This document shows positions 61,778 through 64,000 of a stretch of DNA of 64,000 nucleotides, in pieces. Each line of letters starts with the position of its first letter. Position 1 is the first letter of the stretch. The notes below the pieces were generated by a model that ran no database searches, had not been told where the DNA came from, and saw only the letters and a list, made by a program, of their open reading frames with translations. Where the stretch lies: assembly GCF_048403405.1 (NCBI RefSeq), contig NZ_CP183129.1; one strand, 5' to 3'. The translations under genes and the position numbers were made by a program. Source of the DNA: Escherichia coli (lineage in GTDB: Bacteria > Pseudomonadota > Gammaproteobacteria > Enterobacterales > Enterobacteriaceae).

Positions 61778-62020
61778 ATGATTTATTTATGGATGTTTCT
61801 CGCCCTGTGTATTGTCTGCGTAAGCGGATACATTGGTCAGGTCCTGAACGTGGTATCGGCGGTCTCTTCTTTCTTCGGCATGGTGATCCTCGCTGCACTC
61901 ATTTATTACTTCACCATGTGGTTAACTGGCGGTAATGAACTGGTGACGGGGATATTTATGTTTCTTGCCCCGGCTTGTGGCTTGATGATTCGCTTTATGG
62001 TGGGGTATGGCAGGCGGTAG
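61778..62020 (+). CDS. yfdY: YfdY, small inner membrane protein
   Basis: 80-aa hydrophobic ORF. Confidence 0.75.
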   Translation: MIYLWMFLALCIVCVSGYIGQVLNVVSAVSSFFGMVILAALIYYFTMWLTGGNELVTGIFMFLAPACGLMIRFMVGYGRR

Positions 62021-62096
62021 TAGTTCAGGATGGATCATTTGGGCAGGTGTTCACATCAGCATCAGACATGATTGTTCACCTGCCGTGTGACAGACG

Positions 62097-62372
62097 CTAT
62101 CGCACAGGATGGATAAGATAATTCGCCTTTGTCGGAAAAGGGGGCGGAATTTCTTCTGTGAGGTTTAATGGTGGCGCATCTTCTCTCATCTTAAACAAAA
62201 TCGCCTGTGATGGCTGAAGTTTTGTAGAATGAGTTGTCGTCATCATTGACGTTTTTTCTGTCTCTTTATAGCTCGTCTCACTTCCACCACCAGAAATGGA
62301 AAATGCAAAAACATTGCATGCCATAATAGAGACCAATAAAAATAAGCTAAAAAGCATTAAGTTTACTTTCAT
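62097..62372 (-). CDS. ypdI: YpdI, small lipoprotein
   Basis: 91-aa ORF with signal peptide and lipobox-like MACN. Confidence 0.75.
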   Translation of the reverse strand: MKVNLMLFSLFLLVSIMACNVFAFSISGGGSETSYKETEKTSMMTTTHSTKLQPSQAILFKMREDAPPLNLTEEIPPPFPTKANYLIHPVR

Positions 62373-62513
62373 AGAAAGTTATCCTGAAAATGGTTCACTG
62401 AGAACCTACGATGTTATGGCTGTATTTACATTTAATTAATCAGTATTTACATCGATATAATAAATGACATCTCTTTGTGGTATATAAGAATAGTTCTCTG
62501 TGACAGGAAGCAT

Positions 62514-62531
62514 ATTCCTACAATTGTAAGA
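62514..62531. promoter_or_regulatory. EvgA-box-like inverted repeat upstream of yfdX (ttcctaca at tgtaagac)
   Basis: Resembles the 18-bp EvgA consensus TTCYTACA-N2-TGTARGAA; a second weaker copy at about 62554-62569. Confidence 0.45.
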
Positions 62532-62667
62532 CTAAAATACTTCTTGCGATAATAACTACAACTGTAAGATAACCCTTTCAAAATGAGCGTTGCTCTCTGA
62601 TTTCTCATTTCATGCTCACCCAATATGATGGCGGCGTTTTCTAAAACTGTTAAAGAATGAGGTAAGT

Positions 62668-63300
62668 ATGAAACGTTTAATTATGGCTACGATGGTCACA
62701 GCAGTTCTGGCATCTTCAACTGTATGGGCTGCTGATAATGCACCGGTAGCGGCACAACAGCAAACTCAGCAAGTTAAGCAAACCCAGAAAACGGCAGCAG
62801 CAGAGCGTATCTCTGAACAAGGTTTATATGCGATGCGTGACGTGCAGGTAGCGCGCCTGGCTCTGTTTCATGGCGATCCGGAAAAGGCAAAAGAACTGAC
62901 CAATGAAGCTTCAGCTTTGTTGTCAGATGACAGTACCGAATGGGCAAAGTTCGCTAAGCCAGGTAAAAAAACCAATGTCAATGATGACCAATATATTGTC
63001 ATTAATGCATCTGTCGGAATTTCTGAGAGTTATGTAGCGACACCCGAAAAAGAAGCCGCGATAAAAATTGCCAACGAAAAAATGGCGAAAGGGGATAAAA
63101 AGGGCGCAATGGAAGAGCTGCGCCTGGCCGGTGTTGGCGTAATGGAAAACCAATATCTGATGCCGCTCAAACAGACTCGTAATGCACTTGCTGATGCGCA
63201 GAAACTGCTTGATAAAAAGCAATACTACGAGGCAAACCTGGCGCTTAAAGGTGCGGAAGATGGAATCATCGTCGATAGCGAAGCACTGTTTGTGAACTAA
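62668..63300 (+). CDS. yfdX: YfdX, periplasmic protein
   Basis: 210-aa ORF with signal peptide. Confidence 0.85.
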
Positions 63301-63543
63301 CGCTGACAGGCAGTATATTGAGGTAAAGGATTTAACTCCCTCCAGCCGACAATTTTTTATGACCACAATACGACAGGTTGTGGTCATAAAATTATTTGGC
63401 GCTCGCGGTTCTATAAACTCGCATTTTATCTTCTTCAAAGTAAACCGCAATAATCCCGTGTCATCACAAATCATTTATTATGTTATGTTTTATGGTACGC
63501 TTTAAAAGGCGTAATCATACCCTTACTTGTAAATCACCGGCGC

Positions 63544-63561
63544 TTCTTACAGTTGTAAGAA
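63544..63561. promoter_or_regulatory. Perfect EvgA-box palindrome upstream of frc (ttcttaca gt tgtaagaa)
   Basis: Exact match to both half-sites of the EvgA consensus, about 250 bp upstream of the frc start. Confidence 0.55.
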
Positions 63562-63812
63562 TAACATCACAAATGTCGCGGCTCTCTCTGATTACCGCGA
63601 ACCAATATTTATCATATTCTTCTTTTCGTCCTCACTACTTACCATGCAGAAAGGAATTGGAAGTGGCGATGAAATGATTTTCAGCACTTGATACAGGAAT
63701 TTAAAAATATCGAGTGCAGCTACGACGATATTTTGCGGATTATTTATAGAGGGCGTTATGCCTTAAATAAACGCTAAATTAACATATATTTAATTAACTA
63801 ATAGGTATTGCT

Positions 63813-64000
63813 ATGTCAACTCCACTTCAAGGAATTAAAGTTCTCGATTTCACCGGTGTGCAATCTGGCCCATCTTGTACTCAGATGCTGGCCTGGTTTG
63901 GCGCTGACGTCATTAAAATTGAACGTCCCGGCGTTGGTGACGTAACGCGTCACCAGCTGCGAGATATTCCTGATATCGATGCGCTTTACTTCACCATGCT
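63813..64000 (+). CDS. frc: Frc, formyl-CoA:oxalate CoA-transferase (N-terminal part; continues past window end)
   Basis: Manual translation [63 protein letters not shown]; start position uncertain by 1 bp. Confidence 0.8.

Follow-up and report, generated by a model that had tools for sequence, protein, structure and literature searches.

The window, i.e., the whole stretch of 64,000 nucleotides that we have analysed, ends with the gene order alaC-lpxP-yfdY-ypdI-yfdX-frc. Here ypdI and yfdX are divergent and are separated by a spacer of 295 bp with 33% GC, and frc starts at 63814 (Table 1). When the 321 bp at 62360-62680, which cover the spacer, are compared with K-12 MG1655, there are 2 differences and none of them falls in the boxes described below, so the K-12 literature is directly applicable to this spacer. 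The spacer was also compared with Rfam for structured RNAs, and nothing matched at E <= 1.

Table 1. Features of the ypdI-yfdX-frc region (positions of the window) and elements of the other EvgA promoters used for comparison; promoter elements are predicted.
Feature	Position	Strand	Sequence	Remark
ypdI CDS	62097-62372	minus		putative colanic-acid lipoprotein
Predicted ypdI -10	62457-62462	minus	TATTAT	starts 52 nt after box 1
Proximal element, predicted ypdI promoter	62483-62489	minus	TCTTATA	same register: TCTTATT in ydeP; TCCTATT in safA, yegR
EvgA box 1	62515-62532	.	TTCCTACAATTGTAAGAC	1 mismatch to the 18-bp inverted-repeat consensus TTCYTACANNTGTARGAA
EvgA box 2	62553-62570	.	TAACTACAACTGTAAGAT	3 mismatches to the consensus TTCYTACANNTGTARGAA
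Proximal element, predicted yfdX promoter	62596-62602	plus	TCTGATT	EvgA half-site-like; about -40 to -34
Predicted yfdX -10	62624-62629	plus	TATGAT	starts 53 nt after the end of box 2
yfdX CDS	62668-63300	plus		periplasmic YfdX family protein; ATG at 62668
frc (yfdW) EvgA box	63544-63561	.	TTCTTACAGTTGTAAGAA	perfect consensus copy
emrK/evgA EvgA box			ATCCTACAGGCGTAAGAA	gene orientation
safA EvgA box			TGCCTACAGCTGTAAGAA	gene orientation
ydeP EvgA box			AGCCTACACCTGTAAGAA	gene orientation
yegR EvgA box			TTCCTACTTATGTAGGAA	gene orientation
Proximal element, safA and yegR	+26 to +32 after box		TCCTATT
Proximal element, ydeP	+26 to +32 after box		TCTTATT
Proximal element, frc	+26 to +32 after box		TCTGATT
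Proximal element, emrK	+26 to +32 after box		TCCTCTG	poorer match
-10-like hexamer, frc	after box		TATTCT
-10-like hexamer, emrK	after box		TAAATT
-10-like hexamer, safA	after box		TATATT
-10-like hexamer, ydeP	after box		TAATTT
-10-like hexamer, yegR	after box		TATTAT

Two copies of the 18-bp inverted repeat TTCYTACA-NN-TGTARGAA (TTCYTACANNTGTARGAA), which we take to be the EvgA box consensus, are present in the spacer. The consensus has been re-derived here from the K-12 promoters of known EvgA targets (emrK/evgA, safA, ydeP, yegR, and frc). The mismatches of box 2 are all at outer positions (2, 3, and 18), and its core CTACA-NN-TGTAAGA is intact. The centres of the boxes are 38 bp apart, with box 1 lying 136-153 bp and box 2 lying 98-115 bp upstream of the yfdX ATG. 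Their cores CTACAAnTGTAAGA form a 14-nt direct repeat of 93% identity with a 38-bp period, and the two 38-bp units have no similarity outside the 15-nt box cores. The initial annotation had already noticed two EvgA-box-like repeats between the divergent genes, and the gene coordinates agree with this location (ypdI on the minus strand, yfdX on the plus strand). Its positions were one base too low, as box 1 occupies 62515-62532 and the 16-mer quoted for box 2 occupies 62555-62570, and its distance of 135-155 bp upstream of yfdX is right for box 1 but not for box 2.

We have then asked how unusual these matches are in the window. With up to 3 mismatches allowed, the consensus has 3 matches in the 64 kb, namely box 1, box 2, and the frc box, vs 0.46 expected, and none of 100 shuffles reaches this number. 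A palindromised weight matrix was built from five independent EvgA boxes (emrK/evgA, safA, ydeP, yegR, and frc), and among the 63,983 window positions it ranks the frc box first, box 1 second, and box 2 third; if the frc box is excluded when building it, box 2 drops to fourth. The scan against the AT-rich background, which had been proposed as a check on the repeats, also gives scores above background, since only 34 of 5000 dinucleotide shuffles (0.7%) of the 33% GC spacer reach the score of box 2. Overall, both boxes are very probably functional EvgA sites. A further candidate in the middle, TTCTTGCG (62541-62548), was rejected, as it shows half-site similarity only, overlaps hypervariable positions, and is out of phase.

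To describe the surroundings of the boxes, we have aligned the EvgA promoters without gaps, anchored on the box end and oriented by the regulated gene. Two elements recur downstream of the box. The first, TC[CT][TG]AT (TCYKAT), is found at +26..+31 after the box in frc, safA, ydeP, yegR, and the six yfdX orthologues of Buttiauxella. The second, TAnnnT, is found at +53 or +54 after the box in all of these and in emrK. The TCYKAT element, which resembles a half-site, follows the corresponding bases of the main box at a distance of 42 bp (2 x 21; four helical turns), and with this layout the box centre falls at about -74.5 relative to the predicted start. For ydeP, the 5' leader in a Romeo/Babitzke study starts at -178 from the ATG (PMC11210196); this is exactly the start predicted by the layout, and the ydeP box centre is then at -74.5.

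For the scan of the window, only frc, safA, ydeP, and yegR were used to define the pattern TC[CT][TG]AT; that is, its basis is four independent promoters, and emrK fits poorly (TCCTCT). Likewise, a -10-like hexamer is easily found in AT-rich DNA, i.e., at 5-8% of the anchors. Both downstream features together occur at only 3 of the 127,880 anchors on the two window strands, i.e., after the frc box (+), after box 2 (+), and after box 1 (-), whereas box 1 (+) and box 2 (-) do not fit. Thus the layout picks out exactly the three expected anchors in the 64-kb window, and it would be a sharper rule for direct EvgA targets than the 18-mer alone. Such a layout common to EvgA promoters appears to be new, though it is derived here from few independent promoters, and the TCTGATT that frc and yfdX have in common could be shared through common descent rather than through a shared constraint.

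On the yfdX side, the element TCTGATT recurs unchanged and in an identical register in the promoters of frc and of Buttiauxella yfdX (TCTGATT in five species). The predicted start is at ~62636, with a 5' UTR of ~32 nt, and a generic promoter scan also gave TTCTCA-16-TATGAT for yfdX. On the ypdI side, the predicted start is at ~62449 with a 5' UTR of ~77 nt, and the 6-nt core TCTTAT of the proximal element is invariant in 13 E. coli lineages. From this arrangement we infer that box 2 belongs to the yfdX promoter and box 1 to the divergent ypdI promoter, each with its centre at about -74.5 from the respective predicted start. Box 1 was rejected as the yfdX-proximal site, since neither TCYKAT nor a -10 hexamer is in register after it on the plus strand; its centre would be at about -112.5 from the predicted yfdX start.

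The arrangement resembles that of the emrK-evgA region, where a divergent pair is likewise controlled from an EvgA box in the spacer. In that region the box is at about -74.5 from the predicted emrK start and at about -109.5 from the evgA start implied by a -124 leader, compared with about -74.5 and -112.5 for the two boxes of yfdX-ypdI. The difference is that emrK/evgA has a single box, while ypdI/yfdX has one box per direction.

An EvgA repeat upstream of emrK/evgA, ydeP, b1500 (safA), yegR, yfdX, and yfdW was reportedly described by Masuda and Church in 2003, and box 1 is probably the repeat published for the upstream region of yfdX. yfdX is known as a direct target activated by EvgA~P (PMC5706723), and the production of YfdX reportedly increases about 1000-fold on EvgA overproduction (PMC6339873). 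EvgA inverted repeats have been marked upstream of yfdX and of yfdWUVE, in a legend that does not state their number upstream of yfdX (PMC3720670). Our literature search found no EvgA footprint, EMSA, or ChIP for either box, and no mapped transcription start of yfdX or ypdI.

Expression data place ypdI beside yfdX. On exposure to glutathione, ypdI is up 5.5-fold, together with yfdX (9.8-fold), yegR (11.9-fold), and ydeO (5.3-fold), and emrK, frc, and oxc are up as well (PMC5811628). In an evgS-constitutive mutant, ypdI rises by log2 2.75 and yfdX by log2 6.97 (PMC4283999 supplement), and both genes are members of the EvgA iModulon (PMC6892915 supplement). As the induction of ypdI is much weaker than that of yfdX, it could be a spill-over rather than the output of a dedicated promoter. 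The same iModulon work (Sastry 2019) lists the 29-mer TTTTGAAAGGGTTATCTTACAGTTGTAGT, at K-12 position 2494486, as a ypdI motif site (PMC6892915 supplement). On inspection, this 29-mer turns out to be box 2 in reverse complement, together with the flank on its yfdX side. The table thus gives box 2 to ypdI by proximity, whereas our layout analysis links box 2 with yfdX and box 1 with ypdI; the published assignment is based on proximity and motif only.

Our preferred reading is that the spacer holds two back-to-back, divergent EvgA modules, box 2 directed to yfdX and box 1 to ypdI, and we hold it with modest confidence, as somewhat more probable than not. The sequence matches, their excess over chance, the common layout, and the conservation pattern are shown here, and the co-expression of both genes with the EvgA regulon is taken from papers; we infer the binding of EvgA to each box, both starts, and the assignment of boxes to genes. 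The initial annotation had instead implied tandem sites for yfdX. The part of it concerning the boxes stands, as both look genuine, but only box 2 is in the yfdX register. The implied picture of two sites for yfdX is unsupported in that form because box 1 fits the register only towards ypdI and the distance between the boxes is not fixed, as shown below.

The tandem picture nevertheless deserves to be spelled out. It says that the two boxes are cooperative sites for yfdX only, where box 1 is bound first and loads box 2, and that the induction of ypdI is a by-product of local opening or of relief from H-NS. Such a division of labour would fit with box 1 being the better match and box 2 being weaker and promoter-proximal, with yfdX being among the most strongly EvgA-induced genes while ypdI is induced far less, and with the 38-bp period being kept in a three-box allele. 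It also resembles the primary and secondary sites of BvgA. BvgA of Bordetella, known from the fha and ptx promoters, is the closest well-studied homologue of EvgA, and its promoters carry an upstream high-affinity inverted repeat followed by weaker half-sites reaching the -35, with a period of roughly 21-22 bp. The EvgA promoters likewise combine a main inverted repeat with extra half-sites (TCYKAT 42 bp further on in E. coli, and TCTGACA 20 bp upstream in Buttiauxella). However, the spacing of box 1 and box 2 (38, 39, or 76 bp) is no multiple of the BvgA period, and therefore nothing points to an unbroken row of dimers between box 1 and the yfdX -35. In addition, a spacing of 38-39 bp puts the dimers on nearly opposite faces of the helix, and it varies among lineages. 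Box 1 also fits the full module in the ypdI direction, which would occur by chance at roughly <=1 in 10,000 random anchors, and the promoters of Buttiauxella yfdX, frc, safA, ydeP, and yegR work with one box at the position of box 2. Taken together, we consider it unlikely that both boxes serve yfdX alone, and we retain the divergent modules as the preferred reading.

We have further examined how the spacer varies within E. coli, where its diversity is unusually high. According to identity to the spacer, 1167 records fall in the band of >=99%, 2693 in 95-99%, 1135 in 90-95%, and 416 in 80-90%. The column counts below refer to 13 sampled E. coli lineages, which are related to each other, and they are descriptive only. 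While 61 of the 295 spacer columns are variable in these lineages, none of the 28 consensus-matching box positions is. Within the boxes, the variable columns are 62524, 62561, and 62562, which make up three of the four central Ns, and the non-consensus positions 62532 (box 1) and 62554 (box 2). Such a pattern would agree with purifying selection that acts on the specified positions but spares the central NN. No variation is seen in the two -10 hexamers or in the two proximal elements. As to length, strain FCI17 (lineage L020) has a 1-bp insertion in the segment 62533-62543, giving a box spacing of 39 bp, and in lineage L016 the proposed ypdI module is shorter by a deletion of 1 bp.

The band of 80-90% identity corresponds to a tandem duplication of 38 bp. 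This duplication produces a third, hybrid box TAACTACAATTGTAAGAC, whose left half comes from box 2 and whose right half comes from box 1. The resulting order is box 1, hybrid, box 2, with a distance of 76 bp from box 1 to box 2. A query with the three-box sequence has given 415 records of >=99% identity among 5426 complete genomes (~7.6%), and the three of these 415 matches that are shown are each unbroken and full-length. That is, the 38-bp unit has two copies in most genomes and three copies in 415 of 5426. One example is L013:443-540 (E. coli IDR1900005638-01-02), corresponding to 62515-62570 of the window. The polymorphism of two vs three boxes appears to be new. Overall, the internal distances of the yfdX module are fixed, while the distance between the boxes is 38 bp in most genomes and can also be 39 or 76 bp. 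A free distance between the boxes, together with a kept distance from each box to its own promoter, speaks for two modules that are independent of each other rather than for a tandem pair in strict phase.

The same data bear on whether box 2 matters at all. It could be supposed that box 1 alone is functional and that box 2 is either a copy in decay or a match by chance, which persists through its overlap with something else upstream of yfdX. Box 2 does have three mismatches, and four in Yersinia vastinensis; conservation is good over the entire half of the spacer next to yfdX and thus does not set box 2 apart; and the legend in PMC3720670 is silent on the number of repeats upstream of yfdX. 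On the other hand, a box that ranks third of 63,983 positions, with a score reached by 0.7% of the spacer shuffles, would be a rather rare chance match, and its variation is confined to the two central N positions and one non-consensus position. Moreover, it is box 2 and not box 1 that stands in the canonical register and at the position of the Buttiauxella box, and an independent MEME analysis of the EvgA iModulon has also picked out box 2. A functional role for box 1 only is thus improbable in our opinion.

The duplication in turn raises the question whether the pair of repeats is merely a structural by-product of a recombination-prone 38-bp tandem duplication, or whether it serves another regulator of the NarL/FixJ family such as RcsB. 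Recombination between the boxes does occur, as the 38-bp unit has been duplicated again in the 415 genomes, but the 38-bp units are dissimilar outside the cores, so an ancestral duplication is not evident. As for RcsB, the yfdX gene of Klebsiella pneumoniae is RcsB-dependent (PMC6394985), but the boxes match the EvgA consensus and not the RcsB motif KMRGAWTMWYCTGS (PMC6394985), and yfdX and ypdI both track EvgA activity. We regard either version as very unlikely, and we go on with the divergent EvgA modules.

A search for YfdX in species-representative genomes has returned nine loci, i.e., one in E. coli, one in Yersinia vastinensis, six in Buttiauxella, and one on a contaminant contig; no YfdX from other Escherichia species was returned among these genomes, and the comparison beyond E. 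coli is accordingly a thin one. The six yfdX genes of Buttiauxella adjoin genes for an evgS-type hybrid kinase, hdeD, and an hdeB-like protein, and a gad-type (glutamate-decarboxylase-like) gene. Each has only one box upstream, TTCTGACA-NN-TGTMRGAC. After this box come TCTGAT at +26 (TCTGATT in five species and TCTGATG in one) and TATTCT at a distance of 53 nt. As the box lies 53 nt before the -10, it occupies the position of E. coli box 2, and not that of box 1. The spacer between the divergent hdeD and yfdX genes of Buttiauxella also contains an extra half-site, TCTGACA, located 20 bp upstream of where the yfdX box (aaTCTGACAtctgtctc..TTCTGACAaaTGTCAGAC; L006-L011:2855-2900) has its left half, and the half-site core of the genus is CTGACA rather than CTTACA.

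In Yersinia vastinensis IP38594 (L005:2800-3900), a yfdX-frc block lies directly downstream of arsB-arsC, and its YfdX is 83% identical to the E. coli protein. The similarity to E. coli DNA starts about 25-30 bp upstream of box 1, and the part towards ypdI is absent. In this copy there are 3 mismatches in box 1 and 4 in box 2, and the core promoter, including the yfdX -10, is conserved. This looks like a horizontal transfer of an EvgA-controlled yfdX-frc block without ypdI. The remaining locus is a scaffold of 241 bp (NZ_GG693475.1, L012) from the assembly of Limosilactobacillus vaginalis DSM 5837, which encodes the last 54 residues of YfdX with 100% identity to E. coli; it is almost certainly E. 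coli contamination.

Based on the above analyses, the following mechanism can be proposed. At mildly acidic pH, EvgS would phosphorylate EvgA, a response regulator of the NarL/FixJ family, and dimers of EvgA~P would bind at the two boxes and bring in RNA polymerase for transcription both ways. Each module should then consist of the 18-bp inverted repeat at about -74.5, TCYKAT at about -40 (immediately before a weak -35), and the -10 hexamer. Box 2, the weaker match, would activate yfdX, and box 1, the stronger match, would activate ypdI on the other strand. At a distance of 38 bp, box 1 may also help to load the weak box 2, though this is not required by the data. By analogy with the secondary sites of BvgA, TCYKAT may be a further contact of EvgA next to the -35.

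With respect to what is known, the control of yfdX and frc by EvgA through inverted repeats has already been published, and this established picture is unchanged. Both boxes match the repeat of the EvgA regulon and lie upstream of EvgA-induced genes, as does the frc box, a perfect copy. What differs is that two boxes occur in one spacer, that the weaker one holds the single-box register, that the stronger one fits a divergent ypdI promoter, and that some genomes have a third, hybrid box. Box 2 is not wholly unreported either, since it is in the 2019 supplementary table, where it is attributed to ypdI. The assignment of the weak box to yfdX and of the strong box to a predicted ypdI promoter appears to be new. 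The two boxes therefore refine the known EvgA regulon rather than reveal something new. More tentatively, we suggest that all these elements may belong together: a three-part EvgA layout, in which the strong box would serve an unrecognised ypdI promoter and the weak box yfdX, and a 38-bp polymorphism that may tune the induction. This combined proposal is conceivable, but we hold it with less confidence than the divergent modules as such.

If the assignments are right, ypdI, a poorly understood gene for a colanic-acid-linked lipoprotein, gains a concrete predicted EvgA-dependent promoter. Also, PyfdX is the standard reporter of EvgS/EvgA activity (PMC5706723), and both the box that drives it and the natural alleles with two or three boxes or with a spacing of 38 or 39 bp would affect comparisons of reporter strength between strains.

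One feature between the boxes is not explained by the divergent-module model. The inter-box segment 62533-62552 comprises a hypervariable part at 62533-62543 and an invariant part at 62544-62553, and the latter, TTGCGATAAT, is identical in the 13 E. coli lineages and in Yersinia vastinensis, next to 11 hypervariable bp. It runs into the beginning of box 2 and can be read as TGnGATAAT, similar to an extended -10. Together with a TTGTAA inside box 1, it gives a promoter-like site TTGTAA-18-(TG)GATAAT (62524-62553) that overlaps both boxes.

Within the frc promoter, TCTGATT (63587-63593) and TATTCT (63615-63620) stand in the same register as in the yfdX module. The predicted frc start is at ~63627, with a 5' UTR of ~187 nt. 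A terminator-like hairpin with a 15-bp stem lies between yfdX and frc (63355-63391), and therefore the two genes are probably separate EvgA-driven transcription units.

Some minor observations concern the neighbourhood. Around the predicted ypdI start and leader, there is a direct repeat of GTATTTACAT in two copies 21 bp apart (62422 and 62443). The sequence TCGATATAAT (62452-62461) is similar to what we take to be the reported high-affinity motif of H-NS, and the neighbouring yfdX-frc spacer is flagged for H-NS in a genomic-SELEX table. In E. coli strain 1506 (NZ_CP059288.1), an insertion of the IS1 family breaks the ypdI-yfdX-frc neighbourhood; its match to 62000-64000 of the window is split into two pieces, with a span ~780 bp longer.
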